DNA of 55,278 nucleotides from Candidatus Bathyarchaeota archaeon B26-2 (GCA_001593935.1 LUCE01000007.1:1-55278); one strand, 5' to 3'. Counted from the first letter of the stretch, positions 5,239-27,721 are shown. Numbers and translations: made by a program. Notes: generated from the letters alone by a model not told the origin.

Positions 5239-5328
5239 TGGAGCCTCGGGCGGGATTTGAACCCGCGACAACCGCCTCTTCAGACTCTTTACCAAGGCGG
5301 TGCCCTAACCCGGCTGGGCCACCGAGGC
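5239..5328 (-). tRNA. tRNA-Thr(GGU) with a 12-nt canonical (37/38) intron and encoded CCA
   Basis: The minus strand reads GCCTCGG-TG-GCCC-AGCCGGGTTA-GGGC-A-CCGCC-TTGGTA[AAGAGTCTGAAG]A-GGCGG-TTGTC-GCGGG-TTCAAAT-CCCGC-CCGAGGC-T-CCA. The acceptor, D, anticodon and T stems are perfect, the discriminator is U73, and oligo-T runs lie downstream. Confidence 0.8.
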
Positions 5329-19184: not shown

Positions 19185-20531
19185 GTGGTGGTTACGTTGG
19201 GCGGTAACCATGATCTTCCAAGTCTCCCCGGCTACAAGGGTGAAGCCTTGAAGATTCTCAGAGAAGCCGAAGCCCAAGCCGGGGACTTGATCCGGATATT
19301 CAAGGATGGAACCTCCTACGAGGGGGTTCTCATGCCTAGATCGGAGTACGGGGATGAGAGGCACATAGTGATCAAGATAAGGTCGGGTTACAACATAGGT
19401 GTGAGGGTGACCGCTGACACCCGGGTTGAGAAGGTTGGAGCCGGGGCTAAGGTCACCTTCAAGCCGCCTCCGCCTCCCAAGCAGAGGCCTAACCTGCCGA
19501 GGGTGTCCATACTCAGCACGGGTGGAACGATAGCTAGCCGCGTCGATTATAGAACCGGAGCCGTCCGCCCAGCAATCTCCGCTGAAGACCTGTACAGCAT
19601 AGTTCCAGAGCTCTCAGACATCGCGGTGATAGAGACCGAGGTCATCTTCAGCCTCTTCAGCGAGGACCTAACACCGAAACACTGGACTAGGATAGCTGAG
19701 ACAGTAGCCAAACGTATAGGAGAAGGTGTTGACGGAGTCGTCATAACCCACGGAACCGACACGATGGCTTATACGGCGGCAGCTCTGAGCTTCGCGTTGC
19801 AGGACCTACCCGTCCCAGTCGTCCTCGTCGGGGCTCAACGCTCAGAGGATCGGCCGAGCTCCGATGCGGCGTTGAACCTTATCGGCGCGGTCTCAGCTGC
19901 TGCTGAGGCGCCCTTCGCCGAGGTTGTGGTTGCGATGCATGAGACCGTCTCGGATAACGCCGTTGCCTTCCACAGAGGGACGAAGGTAAGGAAGTGCCAC
20001 ACAAGCCGCCGGGACGCCTTCAAGTCGGTCAATGTGAATCCCTTAGCCCGCTTGGCGGATGGTCAACTCACCATGCTGACCGAGGATTACAGGAAGAGAG
20101 ACCATGATCGGGAGCTGACCCTAAAACCAAACTTTGACGAAAGGGTTGCCCTCATCAAGTTCTATCCTGGAATGAACCCGCGCCTCATCGACCTCTACGT
20201 CGACCTCGGTTATAGGGGACTTATACTCGAAGGGACGGGCCTAGGCCACGTCGGGAGAAAGTGTTTTCCCTCCATTCGGAAAGCCGTGGAACGCGGCCTA
20301 ATAGTTGCGATGGCCTCACAGTGCATCTGGGGCCGAGTCAACATGAACGTTTACACAAACGGGAGAGACCTCTTGGCGTTGGGTGTAATCCCCCTCGGAG
20401 ATATGCTCGCTGAGACGGCTCTTGTCAAGTTGATGTGGGCTCTAGGGGAGACCGACGACCCTGAAGAGGCAAAGGCCCTCCTGAGGACGAATATGGCAGG
20501 AGAAGTCTCAGCTAGGAGCATCTACATCTGA
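19185..20531 (+). CDS. gatD: Glu-tRNA(Gln) amidotransferase subunit D
   Basis: 448 aa with an N-terminal GatD-specific domain and an asparaginase domain (ILSTGGTIAS, THGTDTM). GTG start. Confidence 0.9.
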   Translation: MVVTLGGNHDLPSLPGYKGEALKILREAEAQAGDLIRIFKDGTSYEGVLMPRSEYGDERHIVIKIRSGYNIGVRVTADTRVEKVGAGAKVTFKPPPPPKQRPNLPRVSILSTGGTIASRVDYRTGAVRPAISAEDLYSIVPELSDIAVIETEVIFSLFSEDLTPKHWTRIAETVAKRIGEGVDGVVITHGTDTMAYTAAALSFALQDLPVPVVLVGAQRSEDRPSSDAALNLIGAVSAAAEAPFAEVVVAMHETVSDNAVAFHRGTKVRKCHTSRRDAFKSVNVNPLARLADGQLTMLTEDYRKRDHDRELTLKPNFDERVALIKFYPGMNPRLIDLYVDLGYRGLILEGTGLGHVGRKCFPSIRKAVERGLIVAMASQCIWGRVNMNVYTNGRDLLALGVIPLGDMLAETALVKLMWALGETDDPEEAKALLRTNMAGEVSARSIYI

Positions 20532-20539
20532 AGAGAAAG

Positions 20540-22462
20540 GTGAACACTATGTCTAAACAGTTAAATTACTCCAAGATCGGGCTTCTCGTCGGGCTTGAGT
20601 GCCACCAGCAGCTCGCCACGCGGACGAAACTCTTCTGCTCATGCAAGCCGAGACTCTTCAAGGGCGAACCCAAGGTAACATTCCTCAGGAGGCTGAGGCC
20701 GACTCAGAGCGAACTCGGCCAAGTCGACCCAGCTGCGTACTTCGAGTTCAAGAAGGGCGTAAGGATACTCTACGAGGCAGACAATGAGACCTCTTGCCTC
20801 GTGGAGATGGATGAGGAACCTCCTCATCCCTTGAACCCGGAGGCCCTCGAGGTTGCGTTGACCGTAGCCCTGATGATGAATGCCAAACCTGTCGATGAGA
20901 TTCATGTTATGCGTAAGACCGTTATAGACGGCTCCAACACCACGGGTTTCCAGAGGACGTGTGTCGTGGCCCTAAACGGTTCCATAGAGGTCGAGGGTAA
21001 GGCTGTCCCCATAGAGCACATAAGCCTAGAGGAGGACGCTGCTAGGAAGACAGGGGCTGAGGGCTTCGAGATACGTTATAGGATAGATAGGCTCGGGATA
21101 CCCCTCATAGAGGTTACGACGGGCCCGGTCATCCAGTCTCCCAGAGAAGCCCAGAGGGTAGCCCTCGCCATCGGAAGAATCTTGAGGGCGACGAAGAAGG
21201 TGAGGAGGGGCATAGGAACTATCCGCCAAGACCTAAACATATCTATCCGGGACGGCGCCCTCATAGAGATAAAAGGCGTCCAAGAACTCGAGCTCATCTC
21301 AAAGGTCGTCGAATACGAGGCTAAAAGGCAGCTCGGCCTCCTCGAGATAAGGGACGAACTGAAGAAGAGAGGGGTCACAGAGGACGAAATCCGCGGAGAG
21401 TTCCACAACGCCACGGAGCTCTTCAAGAAGACGAAGTGCCGCGTTCTCCGGAAAGCCATAAACCAAGGAAAACGCGTCTTGGCTGTTAAGCTACCCAAAT
21501 TCTCCGGGCTCTTGGGTCGAGAGATCGCGCCGGGCATGAGGCTTGGGAGGGAGATGGCGGATAGAGCTCGGTTCTGGGGCAGGGTTGGGGGAATCTTCCA
21601 CACCGATGAGCTCCCTGCGTACGGCGTGACGGAGGGCGAGGTTGACCGGCTTAAACGGCTACTGAAGGCCGGGCCTGAAGACGCTGTTGTCTTCGTCGCC
21701 GACACCTTGGAGAACGCGGCCGACGCCTTGAGAGCCGTTGTGGAGAGAGCGAAAGAGGCCTTAAGAGGCGTCCCAGAGGAGACGCGTGCCGCCAACCCGG
21801 ACGGAACCACACGTTACATGAGGCCGAGGCCTGGAGCCGCCCGAATGTATCCGGAGACGGATATACCCCCAATACAGATCACGGAGGAGTACCTCCAAGA
21901 ATTGGCTTCTAGGCTTCCCGAGCTCCCAGAAGAGGCTGTGAAACGCCTCATGGTGGAGTACGACCTCAACGAGAAACTCGCGAAGCAGCTCGTGGACTCA
22001 GAGTATCTAGGCCTCTTTGAGGATACCGTTAGAAAGGCTCAAAGGGTCTCTCCAACGGTTGTGGCAGCAACCCTCACCGAGACCTTGAAGGCCTTGAGGA
22101 GGGACGGTGTTGATGTCGAGGAGGTCTCGGACGAGCAGATTCTAGAGGTCTTTAGACTGGTCGACTCCGGTAGGACAACAAAAGAAGCCATACCGGAGAT
22201 CATAACTTGGCTGGCTGAGCATAAGGATGGAACCGTGGAGGAAGCAGTGAAAGAGTTGGGGTTAACCGTGATCTCTGGAGATGAACTTCGGTCCTTGGTG
22301 GATCGGGTCGTTTATGAGAACGAAGCCGTTGTTAAGGAGAGGGGTGAGGGTGCCTTCGGCTTCCTGATGGGAGTGATCATGAAGAGGTATAGGGGGCGCT
22401 TGGACGCTAAGGTTGTGAGCGAACTTCTTAAAGAGAGGCTGAAGAGTCTGTACAGAGGGTGA
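20540..22462 (+). CDS. gatE: Glu-tRNA(Gln) amidotransferase subunit E
   Basis: 640 aa containing GLECHQQL..KLFCSC. It is GatB-like with the archaeal insertion and sits immediately after gatD. Confidence 0.9.
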   Translation: MNTMSKQLNYSKIGLLVGLECHQQLATRTKLFCSCKPRLFKGEPKVTFLRRLRPTQSELGQVDPAAYFEFKKGVRILYEADNETSCLVEMDEEPPHPLNPEALEVALTVALMMNAKPVDEIHVMRKTVIDGSNTTGFQRTCVVALNGSIEVEGKAVPIEHISLEEDAARKTGAEGFEIRYRIDRLGIPLIEVTTGPVIQSPREAQRVALAIGRILRATKKVRRGIGTIRQDLNISIRDGALIEIKGVQELELISKVVEYEAKRQLGLLEIRDELKKRGVTEDEIRGEFHNATELFKKTKCRVLRKAINQGKRVLAVKLPKFSGLLGREIAPGMRLGREMADRARFWGRVGGIFHTDELPAYGVTEGEVDRLKRLLKAGPEDAVVFVADTLENAADALRAVVERAKEALRGVPEETRAANPDGTTRYMRPRPGAARMYPETDIPPIQITEEYLQELASRLPELPEEAVKRLMVEYDLNEKLAKQLVDSEYLGLFEDTVRKAQRVSPTVVAATLTETLKALRRDGVDVEEVSDEQILEVFRLVDSGRTTKEAIPEIITWLAEHKDGTVEEAVKELGLTVISGDELRSLVDRVVYENEAVVKERGEGAFGFLMGVIMKRYRGRLDAKVVSELLKERLKSLYRG

Positions 22463-22586: not shown

Positions 22587-23045
22587 GTGACTAAACGGTT
22601 ACTGATCGTATATTATACCGGGAGTGGTAACACGAAGAGGATGGCTGAAGAGATCAGTAGAGGCGCCGAGCAGCTTGGAGTCGCCGTTGAGGTCAAAAGG
22701 GTTGAGGAGTGTACTCTTGAAGATTTGGCTGGAGCCGATGGGATCGTGATAGGTTCTCCCACATACTTCAGCAACGTTGCTTGGCAGGTGAAGAAGCTCA
22801 TCGACGAGTCGATAACCCTCTACAGAGGGCGTCAACTAAAGGGTAAGATTGGCGGATGCTTCACATCTTCGGGAACGCGCAGAGACGGCGAAGACTGCGT
22901 TAGGATGCTTGAGTTAGCGTTCGGCTTCCATCACGGAGTGAAGATTGTTCCCGGAATAGTGAGAACGTCGAGAGATGGGGAGAAAGAAGTCTCCGAGATG
23001 TGTCAGCGGTACGGAATGGAGATCGCCAAGGAACTTCTGTCATAA
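22587..23045 (+). CDS. flavodoxin-like fold protein (WrbA/NAD(P)H dehydrogenase-like)
   Basis: 152 aa with LIVYYTGSGNTKRMAE and GSPTYF. GTG start. Confidence 0.7.
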   Translation: MTKRLLIVYYTGSGNTKRMAEEISRGAEQLGVAVEVKRVEECTLEDLAGADGIVIGSPTYFSNVAWQVKKLIDESITLYRGRQLKGKIGGCFTSSGTRRDGEDCVRMLELAFGFHHGVKIVPGIVRTSRDGEKEVSEMCQRYGMEIAKELLS

Positions 23046-23231
23046 GGGTAATGCTTGTTAACTCATGGAACATGCTTCCTTGTTGAAACAACCATGTGGC
23101 AACGGTCACCGTGACATAAATCAAAAATAACGGCGGGCCTAATATACTTATAAACTGTTAGGTAGAAAAGATATTACTGCTATGTGGATGGTGGACAAGC
23201 CATCCTTCTGTAACGCAGGAGAACCTAGTGT

Positions 23232-23711
23232 ATGGGGAGCATCAGAGCCCAGATCAAGACGTCTTTCGGCGAGATCGTGGTTGAAGGAGAGACCGCTGAG
23301 GAGGTTCTCACGATTCTAAAGACCTTGCCGAAGGAGTTTGTGAGCGAGATTGAGACATTGGTGTCCGTGAAGGTCTCCCTCTCGAGAGGAGCTAACCTCG
23401 TAGGCGTGATCGAGTATACTGAGGACGGCCCCATAATAACCTCGGGGATAACGTCGAAGGCTAAACTCACCCACTACGAGGCTATCGGCCTAATTCTCTA
23501 CGCGTCTGAGATGCGGGTCAACACTTCTACTAAGATAAGGAGGCTGCTGGAACACAGCGGGATAAGGTCCCAAGTCTCATCCCGGCTAAACGAGATGTCG
23601 AAGCGAGGCCTCGTCTATAAGCCAAACCTCTCCGGATCGGACTGGAGGCTGACGGCTGAAGGGGAGAGATGGATAAGAGAGAAAGTTCTCCCCAAGTTGA
23701 CGGAGAGTTAA
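23232..23711 (+). CDS. uncharacterised paralog 1 of a four-member family (N-terminal beta-beta-alpha module + EGPxIT + C-terminal winged helix)
   Basis: 159 aa. IKTSFGEIVVEGETAEEVL, EDGPIIT, EAIGLILY, RLNEMSKRGLV and WRLTAEGERW all align with ORFs 24548, 25036 and 25553. Confidence 0.7.
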   Translation: MGSIRAQIKTSFGEIVVEGETAEEVLTILKTLPKEFVSEIETLVSVKVSLSRGANLVGVIEYTEDGPIITSGITSKAKLTHYEAIGLILYASEMRVNTSTKIRRLLEHSGIRSQVSSRLNEMSKRGLVYKPNLSGSDWRLTAEGERWIREKVLPKLTES

Positions 23712-23726
23712 CGGTCCTCACACTCT

Positions 23727-24419
23727 CTAATCCTTCTCTTCACTATACTCGTCGTAAGCCTTGAGAACGGCCTTTATATACTCCTTCAGCCTCTCCGGGG
23801 GGGTTTCGGGGCTTATAGCCAGATTTATGGAGAGGCTGAGCCCTGTAGTCGGCCTCTCAATCAGCTTAGCCACGGTCTTCCTCCGAGCTCTCTCGCCGGG
23901 TTTAGCCCTCCTCACGGGGGCGGTAGCCCTCGGCTTAACGGTGATCTCTTCGAGCTTGAAGGCGTAGGCGAGCATATCCAAGAAGGCGTTGAGCCCAACC
24001 TTGTCAGCCCTCAAGTCTCCGAGGGTTCCGGGCAACTCAACGAGGAGCGCTCTTCTGTCCATACCTTCACGGTTAATCCGCTCCACGAGCCTCGTGATAA
24101 CCTCTTCCTTCTCGAGTATTCTCCTCAGCAGCTGTCTCGTGTGGTCTCCATTTGGGTCTATCCGGTAGGCTGAGGCGAACTCCGCGGCCTCCGGGGTCAG
24201 CCGGTACTTCCCAGATTCCTTCTCACTCTCCTCCACGAACCCCCAGCTCTTGAAGAAGTTGTTGTTCCGACTTATGTTGTGGAGAGTTACCTCCGTCTTA
24301 TCCGTGACCTCACTCAAGCCAACGTAGTTCCGTTCGGCACCAGCATTCAAGTAGGCGACGAGCACACTACATATCTTCGAGAAGCTCAGACGCCTAGGGA
24401 AGAACTTGGCCTCGCTCAT
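23727..24419 (-). CDS. uncharacterised wHTH-like protein with a basic linker and acidic C-terminus, divergent from the paralog operon
   Basis: 230 aa. It has an N-terminal wH-like segment (GLSEVTDKTEVTLHNISRNNNFFKSWGFVEE..GKYRLTPEA) and a basic stretch (RRAKPGERARRKTVAK). It shares the repeat-bearing intergenic region with 24548. Confidence 0.65.
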   Translation of the reverse strand: MSEAKFFPRRLSFSKICSVLVAYLNAGAERNYVGLSEVTDKTEVTLHNISRNNNFFKSWGFVEESEKESGKYRLTPEAAEFASAYRIDPNGDHTRQLLRRILEKEEVITRLVERINREGMDRRALLVELPGTLGDLRADKVGLNAFLDMLAYAFKLEEITVKPRATAPVRRAKPGERARRKTVAKLIERPTTGLSLSINLAISPETPPERLKEYIKAVLKAYDEYSEEKD

Positions 24420-24457
24420 ACCCCAAACTTCCTTCAGAGTAAACTATGACCGCTTCG

Positions 24458-24473
24458 CTTATTAATTTATTTT
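24458..24473 (-). promoter_or_regulatory. TATA-like element for the 23727..24419 gene
   Basis: The minus strand reads aaaataaattaataag, about 40 nt upstream of the ATG at 24419. Confidence 0.35.
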
Positions 24474-24502
24474 ACGTCAAATTTACGTAAAATTTACGTA
24501 AA
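24470..24502. promoter_or_regulatory. candidate operator: three direct repeats phased at 11 bp, each with a (near-)palindromic TTACGTAA core
   Basis: The units are TTTTACGTCAA / ATTTACGTAAA / ATTTACGTAAA, with TTTACGT starting at 24471, 24482 and 24493. They lie between the two divergent TATA-like boxes. Confidence 0.55.
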
Positions 24503-24520
24503 AGTTTTAAGGAGACCGAC

Positions 24521-24533
24521 GCATATTATAAGG
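24521..24533 (+). promoter_or_regulatory. TATA-like element for the 24548-26053 operon (near-leaderless)
   Basis: gcatattataagg ends 15 nt before the ATG at 24548. Confidence 0.4.
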
Positions 24534-24547
24534 CTGAGCGTATCTTC

Positions 24548-25021
24548 ATGAAGGTCCGCGTCGTCATCAAGAGGCCCTTCGGGAACATTGAGCTAGAAGG
24601 TGAGAGCCTCGACGAGATCGTTGAAGGCTTACAGTCTTTCCCAGAGTGGCTTGATGTGATCGACCGGCTTGTCCTCAGCGCTACACCTCAAGAGGAGACC
24701 TCAAGCGTTGAAGAGCTCCTGCGTGGAGTAGTTGTGATCTCGAAAGAGGGGCCCCTAATAACGCTTTCGAGGGAGAAGATCAGCGACAAGGAGGCGATAG
24801 GATTAATCCTCTACGTTGGGGAGCCTAAGGCTTTTGAACCTAAGGAGGTTGGGAGGCTCCTAGAGTTGAGTGGGAGGCCTTCAAGTGGCTTCGGAGCCCG
24901 GTTAAGCGAGATGAGGAGGGAGGGCCTAGTGATAAAGGAGGACGGCGCCTACAGACTCTCAATAATTGGAAGAAGATGGGTTGAGGACCTTGTGAAGAGG
25001 CTGAGGAAAAGTGAAGTTTAG
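24548..25021 (+). CDS. uncharacterised paralog 2 (same family as 23232)
   Basis: 157 aa with IKRPFGNIELEGESLDEIV, KEGPLIT, EAIGLILY, RLSEMRREGLV and YRLSIIGRRW. Confidence 0.7.
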   Translation: MKVRVVIKRPFGNIELEGESLDEIVEGLQSFPEWLDVIDRLVLSATPQEETSSVEELLRGVVVISKEGPLITLSREKISDKEAIGLILYVGEPKAFEPKEVGRLLELSGRPSSGFGARLSEMRREGLVIKEDGAYRLSIIGRRWVEDLVKRLRKSEV

Positions 25022-25035
25022 GAGGGAATTAAGCC

Positions 25036-25533
25036 GTGGAAGAGGATGGACTTGAACTCTCAGTTAGATATAAGGACATGGAGGTTAAGTTTTCAGGAAC
25101 CCCAGAAGACGTCATACGCTCCCTCTTCAGCTTCCTGAGCAAGATTCTGCCGGCCTACGACCTCGCATCCAACCTCGTCTTAACGGTAGACTTAGAGAAG
25201 CTGCTGAGGAGCGTCACAGGCATAATAGCCCTAACACCGGAGGGACCCGTGATAACTGTACCGAGGGAGAAGCTCGGCGGGGAGAAGAACGTCATAATTC
25301 TACACCTATTGAAGGCCTATATTGGATACCAGACTGGTAGGCTTGAGAAGGAATCGCTCTCGACAGCCGAGATACTCTCCTTGACGGGTGGTAAGGCAGG
25401 CACTGTCGCAGCTCGCCTCAGCGAACTAACAAGCCTAGGCTGGGTTGAGAGGGTTGGTAGGGGCGAATACAGGATAACCACGCTTGGAGTTAACTCCTTC
25501 CTGGAGGATGTTCTTCCGAAAATAAAGCCTTAA
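25036..25533 (+). CDS. uncharacterised paralog 3 (same family, sub-pair with 25553)
   Basis: 165 aa with a GTG start preceded by GGAGGG. Contains MEVKFSGTPEDVI, GIIALTPEGPVIT, RLSELTSLGWVER and YRITTLG. Confidence 0.7.
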   Translation: MEEDGLELSVRYKDMEVKFSGTPEDVIRSLFSFLSKILPAYDLASNLVLTVDLEKLLRSVTGIIALTPEGPVITVPREKLGGEKNVIILHLLKAYIGYQTGRLEKESLSTAEILSLTGGKAGTVAARLSELTSLGWVERVGRGEYRITTLGVNSFLEDVLPKIKP

Positions 25534-25552
25534 ACATCGAGAGGAGTGTTTT

Positions 25553-26053
25553 ATGAGCGGCGTAAGCGGTGAGAAGAGGCTGAGGGTTCAGCTAGAATTT
25601 GGGGATGCCAAGGCGACTTTCGAGGGAGACGCCGACGAAGTCTTCAAGGCTTTAACCAGATTCTTAACCCAGATCTACCCGAACCTAGAAGTCGCCATGA
25701 AGATCACTTACATCCCTGACCTCACGAGGCTAGCCGAGGGGCTCGCCGGCATAATAGAGTTGACGCCAGATGGGCCCATATTCACCTCTGACATTCAACT
25801 CTCGGCTAAAGAGAAGATATGTTTAGCCCTTCTAGGCGCCCATGTCGGCGAGAGGCTAGGCAAGCTGAGTAAGGGTTCACTCTCCCCGAGTGAACTCTCG
25901 AGAATCACGGGAAAGGCTAGGAAGACTATCTCGAACGAACTACCCAAGCTCGTTGCTGGAGGGCTCGTCGAGAGGACCTCTGAAGGTGAATGCCAGATAA
26001 CAATCCTTGGAATCAGGGAGACCGAGAACATAATAAAGGAGTATAAAGGCTGA
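25553..26053 (+). CDS. uncharacterised paralog 4 (same family, sub-pair with 25036)
   Basis: 166 aa preceded by GAGGAG. Contains AKATFEGDADEVF, GIIELTPDGPIFT, LPKLVAGGLVER and CQITILG. Confidence 0.7.
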   Translation: MSGVSGEKRLRVQLEFGDAKATFEGDADEVFKALTRFLTQIYPNLEVAMKITYIPDLTRLAEGLAGIIELTPDGPIFTSDIQLSAKEKICLALLGAHVGERLGKLSKGSLSPSELSRITGKARKTISNELPKLVAGGLVERTSEGECQITILGIRETENIIKEYKG

Positions 26054-26218
26054 GAGACTGTCCGTTCAAGTTCTCCCACAGTCTTCCATATGATTCGCTA
26101 CCTATTTTTTGGAGAAACATCAGCTTAGATTTTAGACGTATGGAATAAAATTATTAGTGAAACTGTTAGGGACAATGACGTAGACTTTCCGACAGTTGCG
26201 AATCTCGCTCCTAAGAAT

Positions 26219-27721
26219 CTAACTTAATGTAGGTGTGCTGGAGAATAGGAGGGATAGTGCTCCAGCCATTATTAGATACAGGAGGGATGTGAACACATTC
26301 CTCCTTATGAGTGTTCCTTCCTCGCCTTTCATATCTAGGGAAGCGACTATGACTATTGCGTTTAGGGGGCTCAGCACCTCGCCGGCCATGCTCCCTACGT
26401 TCTGTGTAGCAGCCATCACTCTCTTGGAGATTCCAAGTCTCTCGGCAACCTCTACTTGGAAGGCTCCGAAGAAGATGTTTGATGCACTTGTGCTTCCCGT
26501 AACTACGCATCCCAACATCCCAACCACCGGCGAGACCAGCGGATAGTAGGTTCCCGCCAAGAACGCTACAGCCTCAGCCATGGTTGAGGTCATACCGAAG
26601 GTCTTCATAACCTCCGCCATCGCCACAAAGGAGGATGTCGAGATCAGCAAAGGTATTATCTGTCCTGCAGACAACTTTAGAACCTCCTTCATAAGGCTGA
26701 GTTGAACATTTAAGATGAGCGCGCAGATTATTGTAGCCACGATCATCAAGGTTCCGGGACTGTAAAGATACTGGAAGGTAACCCTCTGACCCGTTGGGAA
26801 GTAGAGTTTGATTGAGAGTTGCTGTGAGGTCAGAAGGCTCCTCAACGGAGGGGTTAACCTTGTCGTTAGGATCAGCGCAGCCATCACTAGGAACGGGAGG
26901 ACCGCCTCAGCGTTTATGTTGAAGGATCTGCCCTCCTTCAGTCGCATCCATAAGGCACAGGGTATTATGGCTGCCGCACCGGCCAGCAGGTTTGGCAACT
27001 CCGGACCGAGGTAGGTTGCCACCAAGATCGCCACCGTCCCATAGGTTAAACCTGTTAGGAGGGCGGGGACCACGACTTGGAGAGGCCTCCTCCTATCGTA
27101 TAGGAGTACCATCCACAGAGGAGCCGTAATGACGAAAGGAAACATCATCAGAGCCGTGGTTCCTGATATGGAGGAGAGTTCTAAACCCGTCACGTAAGAT
27201 ATTGAGTAAATCGAGATTCCTAAGAGCCCGTAGGGCGACTGAATGCCGTTCCCAAACATCCCAACCACAGAGGCTGAAGCCGGATCTACTCCGGCGGCTA
27301 TGAGAATCGAGCTTGAGATGGCGAAGTTTGAGCCTCCGGGGGCTATAGTCCCTAATAAGAGGGCGAAGGAGAACCCGACGAGGATTATGTCAAGCCTCTT
27401 GTCGCCTCCCTTCCCAACGAACATTCCTTTCACATGCTCCATAATCTTCGAGACTTTTAGGAAGTTCAGAAAGAAGAAGGCTCCAAAGATGCTCCAACAG
27501 AAGACGACGACGACCCACGCCACCCCAGCTAAACTTGCACTCAATAAACCGTCAATAGGAGCGTTCCAGAATAGATGAGCAAGCGTCAAACCCGCAATTA
27601 ACCCTATAGGACCCATCTGCTTTCCAGGCCTCTTCAGACCAGCCAAACCGACAAATATTATCATAAGCGGAACCGTTGCAACTAGGGCCCTAGCAAACAC
27701 ATCGAACATCTCAGCCATCAC
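26219..27721 (-). CDS. L-lactate permease (LctP family)
   Basis: 500 aa, polytopic. The C-terminal region ..PVVGMLGCVVTGSTSASNIFFGAFQ..AATQNVGSMAGEVLSPLNI.. parallels E. coli LldP (GWLGVFLTGSDTSSNALF..ANTTGGVTGKMISPQSI). Confidence 0.7.
   Translation of the reverse strand: MMAEMFDVFARALVATVPLMIIFVGLAGLKRPGKQMGPIGLIAGLTLAHLFWNAPIDGLLSASLAGVAWVVVVFCWSIFGAFFFLNFLKVSKIMEHVKGMFVGKGGDKRLDIILVGFSFALLLGTIAPGGSNFAISSSILIAAGVDPASASVVGMFGNGIQSPYGLLGISIYSISYVTGLELSSISGTTALMMFPFVITAPLWMVLLYDRRRPLQVVVPALLTGLTYGTVAILVATYLGPELPNLLAGAAAIIPCALWMRLKEGRSFNINAEAVLPFLVMAALILTTRLTPPLRSLLTSQQLSIKLYFPTGQRVTFQYLYSPGTLMIVATIICALILNVQLSLMKEVLKLSAGQIIPLLISTSSFVAMAEVMKTFGMTSTMAEAVAFLAGTYYPLVSPVVGMLGCVVTGSTSASNIFFGAFQVEVAERLGISKRVMAATQNVGSMAGEVLSPLNAIVIVASLDMKGEEGTLIRRNVFTSLLYLIMAGALSLLFSSTPTLS

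Follow-up and report, generated by a model that had tools for sequence, protein, structure and literature searches.

The 55,278-nt stretch of DNA from Candidatus Bathyarchaeota archaeon B26-2 analysed here, referred to as the window, carries a block of five ORFs that were found at the coordinates and lengths reported in a first-pass annotation. P1 (23232–23711, + strand, 159 aa) combines an acidic N-domain of ~80 aa with a basic C-terminal wHTH and converges on D (23727–24419, − strand, 230 aa), their stop codons lying 15 nt apart. D, which contains a winged helix (wH), a five-helix domain, a basic linker, and a strand with an amphipathic helix, is transcribed divergently from P2, P3, and P4 across a repeat-bearing promoter. 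P2 (24548–25021, + strand, 157 aa) is a lineage-specific paralog that is nearest to P1 by BLASTP, P3 (25036–25533, + strand, 165 aa) starts with GTG and is the best conserved of the paralogs, and P4 (25553–26053, + strand, 166 aa) is a paralog of P3. The convergence of P1 on D and the tight spacing of P2-P3-P4 had both been noticed earlier, and both are real; the P2-P3 and P3-P4 gaps in the window measure 14 and 19 nt, with AGGAGGG before the P3 start and AGAGGAG before the P4 start. BLASTP found no further P copy in the window. The genes gatD and gatE (19185–22462, + strand) are syntenic neighbours included as context, and we claim no functional link between them and the block.

An alignment of P1–P4 spans the whole length of all four proteins. 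BLASTP scored P3/P4 at 4e-25 (36% identity over 150 aa) and P1/P2 at 1e-18 (36% identity over 154 aa), followed by P2/P3 at 1e-7 and by P1/P4 and P2/P4 at ~1e-4 to 1e-3, while P1/P3 was the weakest pair at 0.8. D showed no BLAST similarity to P1–P4. These comparisons indicate that the P proteins are true paralogs forming two sub-pairs, P1/P2 and P3/P4, as the first-pass annotation had described.

The AlphaFold2 model of P3 (mean pLDDT 86) disclosed an N-domain made of a hairpin (residues 6–21), two helices (23–46 and 53–59), and a second hairpin (64–73), followed by a wH (83–147) and a C-terminal helix (149–163). The winged-helix topology α1-β1-α2-α3-β2-β3 is present in the models of both P3 (83–147) and D (12–73). 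Foldseek matched these wH regions to AspA, MarR, ArsR, Sso10a, and TubR with a probability of ~1.0 and an rmsd of 2.2–3.5 Å over ~80 residues, and the PDB profile matches were wH regulators. Pfam wHTH matches were weak but consistent: HVO_A0261_N was matched by 62 of the 67 family members, every one under its cut-off, and the matches of P3 also fell below threshold. P4 was the sole one of the five proteins above a curated wHTH threshold (24.1 bits for HTH_5, whose cut-off is 22), and it matched a Csa3-type wHTH model at 1e-6; P1, P2, and D had no Pfam wHTH match. P3-type proteins accounted for 113 of the best 120 family matches.

The recognition helices have a common type of sequence, xSxRLxEMxxxGLVxK or similar, and differ by ortholog group; in the alignment, no recognition-helix residue is invariant across the four paralogs. 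The wH domains are basic (pI 9.1–10.2) and the N-domains acidic (pI ~4.5), as exemplified by P1, with a pI of 4.5 for its N-domain and 10.2 for its C-domain. AlphaFold2, Foldseek, and profile searches matched the ~80-aa N-domain to no known family.

In the AlphaFold2 model of D (mean pLDDT 83), the wH (12–73) is followed by a helical domain of five helices (75–159), a disordered basic linker (161–196), and a C-terminal module (~197–228) in which a conserved strand and an amphipathic helix lead to an acidic end, in agreement with the earlier description of a 230-aa protein with a wH-like N-terminus, a basic linker, and an acidic tail. The net charge of the linker is +9 (median +7 in 64 orthologs), 42 columns are invariant in 64 sequences, and the orthologs among those listed are 55–88% identical. 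Foldseek and PDB profiles matched the wH only, and no known family was found for the helical domain or the C-terminal module. By these searches none of the five proteins belongs to a named family, generic wHTH apart, which upholds the original impression. What is demonstrably new is a family of wHTH proteins, and wHTH proteins are themselves a very common kind.

Conservation was surveyed in 80 metagenomic loci holding D, 55 of them informative for the P genes and 33 with enough flank for gatE. P3, mostly accompanied by P4, was divergent from D in 41 of the 55 informative loci and P1 adjoined D in 23; P2 was found in only four, always with an array of TTTACGT repeats. These counts indicate that the conserved core is D, P3, and P4, often with P1. 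With P2 limited to a sub-lineage, what is conserved across loci is not a "2+2" set; of the duplicated pair of duplicates proposed by the first-pass annotation, the two sub-pairs are real, but P2 is a sub-lineage addition that arrived with the TTTACGT array. In 14/55 loci D lacks adjacent P3/P4, and in some of these it stands alone beside gatE, so the partnership is not obligatorily cis-encoded. Among 40 distinct loci with a P3-P4 junction, the two genes overlap or are separated by no more than 4 nt in 37.

The genes flanking the block had been considered unrelated to it. This holds for the flavodoxin and lactate permease genes, which differ among lineages, but not for all flanks, because gatD and gatE accompany the block more constantly than any other genes, gatE being found no more than 5 kb downstream of D in 31/33 loci with enough flank. 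Other neighbours are housekeeping genes, for example, those for LeuRS, L10/L1/L11, Spt5, and SecE. Median ortholog identity is 59% for D, 71% for P3, 68% for GatE, and 71% for GatD, which puts D and P3 at a level similar to GatDE. The conservation of D and P3 and the synteny of the block are unusually high for ordinary transcription factors. Judged from these loci, most Bathyarchaeia keep the block beside gatDE, and it is vertically inherited and Bathyarchaeia-specific. With named families absent and co-occurrence of the genes conserved in other genomes, the earlier proposal of an undescribed system therefore stands.

The promoter region from which D and P2 are transcribed in opposite directions (24420–24547) was compared with 48 distinct orthologous intergenic regions, comprising eight P2-first and 40 P3-first loci. 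It contains three tandem 11-nt units, TTTACGTAAAA (24471–24503), a candidate operator that TRF reports as 3.0 copies with 95% matches, in agreement with a second repeat finder and with the repeats noted earlier. Every unit holds the perfect palindrome TTTACGTAAA, and a search for this 10-mer with one mismatch allowed returned only these three matches in the 55 kb window. A TTTACGT array, scored where two or more copies recur at intervals of 10, 11, or 22 bp, occurs in 8/8 P2-first loci compared with 0/40 P3-first loci. The A+T-rich box CTTATTAATTTA (24458–24469, − strand) is a putative TATA-like element for D, and CGTAAAAGTTTTAAGG (24497–24512, + strand), which overlaps the last repeat, is a putative BRE/TATA-like element for the P2-P3-P4 operon. 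For the D element, a CTTATT(A/T)(A/T)T box occupies a constant place in the P2-first loci shown (the window, L025, L007, L026, and L024). CGTAAAAGTTTTAAGG aligns with the box GCGAAAAATCTTTAA, which is conserved with ≤3 mismatches in 25 of the 40 P3-first loci, about 41–120 nt (177 nt in one locus) from where the extracted intergenic region ends, near the P3 start. These alignments indicate that the repeat-bearing promoter is real and carries a phylogenetic footprint. Since the repeats overlap the BRE-like sequence, they could be promoter duplications instead of an operator.

The reading that we favour, at about an even chance, is that the block encodes a lineage-specific, partly heteromeric, self-regulating wHTH DNA-binding module. 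Sequence-specific DNA binding is predicted from the basic wH domains together with the palindromic array at the block's own promoter. A P3/P4 hetero-oligomer is plausible because the two genes are translationally coupled at 37/40 junctions. The coupled genes would supply P3 and P4 in equal amounts; the two proteins most likely act as a hetero-oligomer, which D and P1 may join. The acidic, family-specific N-domain of the P proteins could provide oligomerisation or ligand sensing, and D joins a DtxR/AspA-like wH and a helical domain to the basic disordered linker and the short conserved strand-helix module. The wH domains would contact DNA and thereby regulate, at a minimum, the divergent promoter of the block itself. 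In the window's sub-lineage, P2, a duplicate probably derived from P1, would have been inserted ahead of P3, accompanied by an array in which a TTTACGT(A)AAA palindrome recurs two or three times at a phase of one helical turn. A dimeric wHTH protein, with P2 itself the prime candidate, probably uses this array, situated between the TATA-like boxes of D and P2, as its operator. Weighing against the favoured reading are the unusual conservation and synteny described above, the loci in which D lacks adjacent P3/P4, and the absence of an invariant recognition-helix residue across the four paralogs.

It is possible, although unlikely, that each P protein is instead an independent homodimeric one-component transcription factor whose N-domain senses a small molecule, with the clustering resulting from tandem duplication and D being an unrelated regulator. 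The arrangement of a sensor-like N-domain ahead of a C-terminal wHTH, known from Crp/Fnr and Csa3, would fit such factors, as would a separate recognition helix for each ortholog group, the best PADLOC/NCBIfam matches to the Csa3/CasR wHTH region, and the genomes in which D occurs without adjacent P genes. However, P3 and P4 have overlapping start and stop codons in most lineages, an arrangement more usual among genes for subunits that share a complex, and the P1-D-P3-P4 order is held class-wide with conservation like that of housekeeping enzymes. The one borderline N-domain profile match, to MJ1052/UPF0045 (E 0.005), could point to a sensor; Pfam did not repeat this link, with one of 25 N-domains matching at E 0.2.

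Winged-helix domains serve too as protein-protein or RNA-binding modules. The block could thus encode a non-transcriptional complex in which the basic linker and C-terminal strand-helix of D scaffold the wH subunits P1, P3, and P4, similar to eukaryote-type wH assemblies (ESCRT-II, kite/kleisin, or PCI) or organising the nucleoid, and possibly coupled to GatDE or translation. Housekeeping-like conservation, housekeeping neighbours, and the very tight link to gatDE (31/33) agree with this scenario, as do several non-redundant paralogs whose acidic N-domains could dock on the basic linker of D. The Foldseek matches include proteins of chromatin and segregation (Sso10a, AspA, and TubR), and weak SMC_Nse1 matches occur in 9/67 members (best E 0.021). 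We nevertheless consider such a complex improbable, given the single wH of each P protein compared with the tandem wH of kite and ESCRT-II subunits, and the lack of Pfam matches to ScpA/ScpB, EAP30, Vps25, or PCI. SMC, ESCRT-III/Vps4, and proteasome genes were not found in the neighbourhoods, the convergence of D with gatE argues against their co-transcription, and the palindromic array points toward ordinary site-specific DNA binding.

In four unrelated contigs, the gene for a distant D-like protein (profile E 1e-11 to 1e-15) precedes one for a conserved Mrr_cat-like protein of 282–298 aa, in one case beside an integrase gene and in another beside TIR and AAA genes. D-like or P-like genes also adjoin a 234–241-aa JAB protease in L019, L020, and L104. 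By analogy with these pairs of a D-like protein and an Mrr-like nuclease or JAB protease, the block might be a defence or mobile-element module, which we regard as very improbable: no nuclease, JAB, or integrase gene lies within the block in the window or in the 80 orthologous loci, its chromosomal site next to gatDE is fixed, it evolves like core genes, and the JAB family is scarce, amounting to four clusters among 5.8 billion proteins. The block was also rejected as a member of the anti-phage defence systems in PADLOC or the phage families in PHROGs, the matches covering the wHTH portion alone.

The first-pass annotation had compared the P N-terminus to a ubiquitin-like β-grasp; extended to a module that a JAB protease might release or process at the 'KLGG' of P3, this is a proposal suggested by the strand-turn-strand-helix opening, by K(L/I/M)GG(E/D) at ~residue 80 in most P3 orthologs, and by JAB proteases beside distant relatives, but one that is hardly credible for a modelled N-domain of hairpin, long helix, short helix, and hairpin rather than a five-stranded β-grasp, with no match to ubiquitin, SAMP, ThiS, or MoaD in PDB profiles, Pfam, or Foldseek and no JAB, E1, or E2 in the window. 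The GG is not strictly conserved in P3 orthologs, where it caps the N-terminus of the first wH helix, and it is lacking in P1, P2, and P4.

Compared with known systems, the putative wHTH DNA-binding module resembles parts of several families. The wH domains of MarR/ArsR/PadR-type regulators and of the PadR-like centromere-binding protein AspA of pNOB8 (PDB: 4rs8, 5k5q) superpose with an rmsd of 2.2–3.5 Å on P3 over its C-terminal 80 residues and on D over its N-terminal 75; a helix comes after the wing, as it does in PadR/AspA, and P4 exceeds the ArsR-type HTH_5 threshold. In contrast, the P proteins' acidic N-domain of 80 aa and the helical domain, basic linker, and strand-helix of D are unshared, and no Foldseek match extends to a whole chain (query-normalised TM ≤0.4). 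Kite/kleisin proteins (ScpB/ScpA, MukE/MukF, Nse1-3/Nse4) and ESCRT-II (EAP30/Vps22, Vps25, Vps36) were rejected as relatives on the single wH, the absence of SMC_ScpA, SMC_ScpB, and EAP30/ESCRT-II Pfam matches, and neighbourhoods in which no SMC or ESCRT gene was found.

For D, the best regulator matches of the superfamily wH are in the DtxR/MntR/ScaR group (ScaR 4e-4, SloR and a related metal-dependent regulator 4e-3), and one distant D-like protein is named 'Mn-dependent DtxR family transcriptional regulator' in its source database. The wH alone aligns (profile positions 19–84), leaving the metal-binding/dimerisation domain unmatched, and DtxR does not have the basic disordered linker and strand-helix tail found in D. 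DtxR/MntR membership was rejected, as Pfam gave no Fe_dep_repr_C or Fe_dep_repress match.

The sole profile match of the P N-domain below E 0.1 is the MTH1187/YkoF-like UPF0045 protein MJ1052 (PDB: 2eky; E 0.0048, positions 8–60), a member of a ligand-binding ferredoxin-like (βαββαβ) family. The match spans the hairpin, helix, and next strand, about half of the domain, and is borderline; PF01910 was the Pfam family matched by a single N-domain. We treat this similarity as a lead rather than an assignment.

Csa3/CasR (CARF plus wHTH) and Crp/Fnr share with the P proteins the order of an N-terminal non-DNA-binding domain and a C-terminal wHTH, and the wHTH part of Csa3/CasR is the best PADLOC/NCBIfam model match for P3 and P4 (1e-6 to 1e-3). 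They differ in that the ~80-aa P N-domain has no match to CARF or cNMP-binding domains, and Crp-family structures align poorly (rmsd ~16 Å). Csa3/CARF-wHTH membership was rejected because the N-terminal 60 residues of P3 and P4 are outside any match and the N-domain alone has no Pfam match; the annotated ±10 kb around the block contains no CRISPR-cas genes.

LrpA gave a weak wH match to the D-superfamily profile (E 0.03). Membership of the P proteins in Lrp/AsnC was rejected, since the wHTH is N-terminal in Lrp and C-terminal in the P proteins and no AsnC_trans_reg/RAM match was found. Lrp/AsnC regulators, which are small proteins of archaea, combine a wHTH with an α/β domain for oligomerisation or ligands; their several paralogs can hetero-oligomerise and autoregulate through phased sites, and the likeness of the P proteins to them is one of functional analogy only.

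The block comprises five ORFs, all present in the window as the first-pass annotation had listed them: P1 (23232-23711, +, 159 aa), D (23727-24419, -, 230 aa), P2 (24548-25021, +, 157 aa), P3 (25036-25533, +, 165 aa, with a GTG start), and P4 (25553-26053, +, 166 aa). As expected from their earlier description as full-length paralogs, P1-P4 align end to end, and BLASTP recovered the proposed sub-pairs, P1/P2 (1e-18) and P3/P4 (4e-25), with a P2/P3 match (1e-7) as the bridge between them. D displayed no BLAST similarity to the P proteins, and BLASTP found no additional copy in the 55 kb window. The tight spacing of P2, P3, and P4 was likewise confirmed, with gaps of 14 nt (P2-P3) and 19 nt (P3-P4) and an SD-like purine run at each. 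A terminator-like hairpin with a T-rich tail, the sole one within 22900-26400, lies at 23688-23707 (-), inside the 3' end of P1 and just past the D stop codon; the D transcript could terminate there, inside the converging P1.

Searches of Pfam, NCBIfam, PADLOC, and PHROGs placed none of P1-P4 or D in a curated family, in agreement with the initial impression that no named family was recognisable, and returned only weak, generic wHTH matches, which in the P proteins cover the C-terminal third and in D the N-terminal third. In these databases P2 gave no informative match, P4 alone rose above a threshold (HTH_5, 24.1 versus 22 bits), and HVO_A0261_N was matched by 62 of 67 family members, below the cut-off every time. 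We found no paper on these proteins in the literature.

The AlphaFold2 model of P3 (67-sequence alignment, mean pLDDT 86) opens with a β-hairpin (6-21) followed by a long and a short helix (23-46 and 53-59, respectively) and a second hairpin (64-73), on which the conserved (E/D)GP motif is predicted to sit; a canonical winged helix (wH; 83-147) and a C-terminal helix (149-163) come next. This predicted hairpin-helix-helix-hairpin N-domain does not agree with the β-grasp/ubiquitin-like N-terminus suggested previously, which no search supported. In the model of D (mean pLDDT 83), a wH (12-73) leads into a five-helix domain (75-159); a disordered stretch (162-194) comes next, then a conserved hydrophobic strand and, at 207-228, a C-terminal helix. 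Foldseek on AlphaFold models, a check the annotation had proposed, identified the wH of both P3 and D and nothing beyond it. For P3, compared with the PDB and viral models, the wH alone was matched (AspA, MarR, ArsR, Sso10a, TubR), with no whole-chain match and a query-normalised TM of at most 0.4; for D, neither Foldseek nor profile searching of the PDB gave a match outside the wH. Profile searches against PDB sequences with D, the D superfamily, the P family, and the P N-domain disclosed wH proteins only, apart from one borderline match of the N-domain profile to MJ1052/UPF0045 (E 0.0048), which had no Pfam corroboration (1 of 25 N-domains, E 0.2). Homology between the C-terminal strand-helix of D and the N-terminal hairpin-helix of the P proteins was considered and discarded, hhalign giving nothing significant. 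Kite/kleisin (ScpAB-like) and ESCRT-II assemblies, raised from the protein sizes and wH content, were also rejected: each P protein has a single wH, there were no family-model matches, and no SMC or ESCRT genes are neighbours.

The window is itself Bathyarchaeia DNA, and nearly all homologs, which carry the annotation hypothetical, belong to 'Candidatus Bathyarchaeota/Bathyarchaeia'. The P-family profile retrieved 798 clusters, 113 of the 120 best being P3 orthologs with 59-100% identity, while the D search gave 185 clusters, with 55-100% identity among the matches listed. Close relatives share the order gatD-gatE-flavodoxin-P1> <D P2>P3>P4>, and distant ones have gatD-gatE-P1> <D P3>P4>, or the same without P1; in some relatives a lone D converges on gatE. 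We surveyed 80 metagenomic loci with D, counting P genes on the 55 with enough flank and gatE on 33. Of the 55, 41 have P3 divergently oriented to D, 39 of these with P4 alongside, and 23 have P1 adjoining D; gatE lies at most 5 kb from D in 31 of 33. The genes past P4 and past gatD (gatDE, 19185-22462, + in the window) vary between lineages, and the conserved block is therefore gatDE-(P1)-D-P3-P4. Its core is D, P3, and P4, often with P1, in tight synteny with gatDE. The block represents class-specific, vertically inherited wH proteins of two families that have no curated description. Conserved co-occurrence of the 2+2 set of paralogs with D, which the annotation had raised as a question, stood in part, in that D, P3, and P4 (often with P1) are kept together, but P2 was found in 4 of 55 loci, within a sub-lineage only, and an obligatory 2+2 hetero-oligomer was not borne out. 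P2 is a duplicate particular to that sub-lineage, and P1 is its closest paralog.

Two further features were observed outside the block. Directly upstream of gatD, several Bathyarchaeia lineages conserve an 88-89-aa ORF (loci L106, 15414-15683; L004, 1752-2021; L013, 855-1121) with weak EF-Tu domain-2 and Peptidase_U32_C matches, and its window counterpart is expected by synteny just upstream of gatD, at about 18.7-19.1 kb. The sole tRNA in the window (5239-5328, -; Rfam 56.6 bits) has a gene length of 87-90 nt; ARAGORN left its type undetermined, giving it an 'anticodon' of 4 bases (gtaa), and the gene probably harbours an archaeal intron.

The divergent D-P2 promoter does carry repeats, as first described: in the intergenic region the 11-nt unit TTTACGTAAAA is repeated in tandem, with 3.0 copies (24471-24503), each enclosing the perfect palindrome TTTACGTAAA, a 10-mer that with one mismatch allowed has no window matches besides the three in the array. 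Comparison of 48 distinct D-P intergenic regions (8 P2-first, 40 P3-first) revealed at least two TTTACGT-type units at 10, 11, or 22 bp spacing in all eight P2-first regions, whereas two such units occurred in none of the 40 P3-first regions; the array is therefore a conserved cis-element acquired along with P2 as a joint sub-lineage addition. In P2-first regions the units are flanked by an A+T-rich box towards D and a BRE/TATA-like box towards P2, and the last repeat unit seems to serve also as the BRE-like portion of the P2 promoter. A nearly identical box, GCGAAAAATCTTTAA, is present in 25 of the 40 P3-first regions, about 41-120 nt (177 nt in one) before the end of the extracted region, near the P3 start; by inspection, we take it to be a BRE plus TATA. 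Loci with this box include L056, L064, L012, and L034, and the window counterpart is at 24497-24512. It is unusually strongly conserved for a non-coding element, the proteins of those loci being only about 60-70% identical.

Of 40 distinct P3-P4 junctions, 17 show an overlap of at least 4 nt (mostly 4 or 8 nt) and 20 a separation of 0-4 nt, the 19-21 nt gap being restricted to the window's own lineage. P3 and P4 are translationally coupled, an arrangement typically seen where two proteins are produced in equal amounts. In all four P proteins the N-domain is acidic (pI about 4.5) and the wH domain basic (pI 9.1-10.2); the D linker has a net charge of +9 (median +7 in 64 orthologs). We consider that a DNA-binding, autoregulatory module with a P3/P4 hetero-oligomer has about an even chance of being the correct overall reading. 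DNA would be bound via the basic wH domains with their regulator-like recognition helices, P3 and P4 would act as a hetero-oligomer that D and P1 may join, and the module would control its own divergent promoter. In the window lineage, a dimeric wHTH protein could bind the TTTACGTAAAA array on one helix face, P2 being the prime candidate. The conserved recognition helix differs per ortholog group, each having its own, and it is conceivable, if rather unlikely, that the proteins are independent one-component regulators; the overlapping P3-P4 junctions speak against that account.

Median identities to the queries were 59% for D, 71% for P3, 56% for P4, and 62% for P1, against 68% for GatE and 71% for GatD; the pace of evolution of D and P3 is therefore about as slow as that of an essential enzyme. 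In our estimation, a wH scaffold or chromatin complex with a non-transcriptional role, possibly connected with GatDE, is improbable. A bolder proposal, which we regard as a long shot, is a class-wide housekeeping hetero-oligomeric wH complex of D, P3, and P4 (with P1) of an undescribed kind, in which the basic linker and strand-helix tail of D would scaffold the acidic P N-domains. Such a complex would be a Bathyarchaeia-specific component of chromatin, chromosome organisation, or basal gene expression, genetically coupled to gatDE and distinct from ordinary regulators, its distant relatives having been recruited into nuclease/JAB modules.

In the search for such relatives, the D profile retrieved only 81 clusters from 1.84 billion representatives, about 60 of them full-length D-like proteins with a common wH/helical/linker/strand-helix plan. 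On four unrelated contigs a D-like gene (231-258 aa) is directly followed by an Mrr-like gene (L016, 8001-9668; L021, 6001-7652; L022, 6001-7560; L023, 3929-5523). The 282-298-aa partners are mutually homologous (28-44% identity) with a weak Mrr_cat restriction-endonuclease signature; PADLOC reported no significant system for the pair, with one weak PDC-S28 match (E 7e-4, the L016 partner). The L021 pair adjoins a phage-type integrase, and the L023 pair adjoins TIR and AAA genes. On the L016 contig (GCA_964534025.1) the remaining genes, among them those for ribosomal protein bL19 (PF01245) and RNase HII, have a bacterial appearance, so the D superfamily may extend beyond archaea; the flanking translated ORFs look G+C-rich by inspection, and the locus has a masked run read as X. 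A second group of contigs (L020, 4649-7253; L019, 4725-6786; L104, 815-4216) encodes a JAB/MPN metalloprotease of 234-241 aa, whose HxH...S..D motif is intact by inspection, beside D-like and/or P-like wH genes; L104 also holds a 302-aa protein that is REase-like by inspection. The D-like/Mrr-like pair may be an undescribed defence or mobile module, but no Mrr-like or JAB partner occurs in the window or the 80 orthologous loci, and a defence or mobile role for the block itself is very improbable. The PCI/MPN or Ubl-JAB relationship prompted by the JAB genes is equally hard to credit, as this JAB family is rare (4 clusters in 5.8 billion proteins), it has a different, HTH_24 protein of about 205 aa as its constant neighbour, and the window lacks it. 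We assign the nuclease and JAB pairings to the wider superfamily and not to the window block.

Bathyarchaeia are abundant, and to our knowledge almost nothing is known experimentally of their gene regulation or chromatin. The block offers a clean target of five small soluble proteins, with a defined candidate operator in the three copies of TTTACGTAAAA, a highly conserved promoter, and clear comparative predictions in the P3-P4 coupling and the linkage of P2 to the repeat array. Its housekeeping-level conservation, gatDE synteny, and testable predictions merit experiment. Should the proteins assemble into a heteromeric complex with conservation at that level, they would constitute a lineage-specific core DNA-binding machine and define new domain families, two in number; should they prove to be ordinary regulators, two uncharacterised families and their cis-element would still have been named.

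The fold of the P proteins and D is a winged helix of the MarR/ArsR/PadR/DtxR kind, the P domain order of a sensor domain followed by a wHTH resembles Csa3 or Crp, and the lifestyle resembles Lrp-type paralog sets, but in each case membership breaks down at the non-wH domain. Nothing in the evidence demands a new principle; what is new is the protein families and their conserved multi-paralog arrangement, and what is known is the very common DNA-binding fold beneath them.
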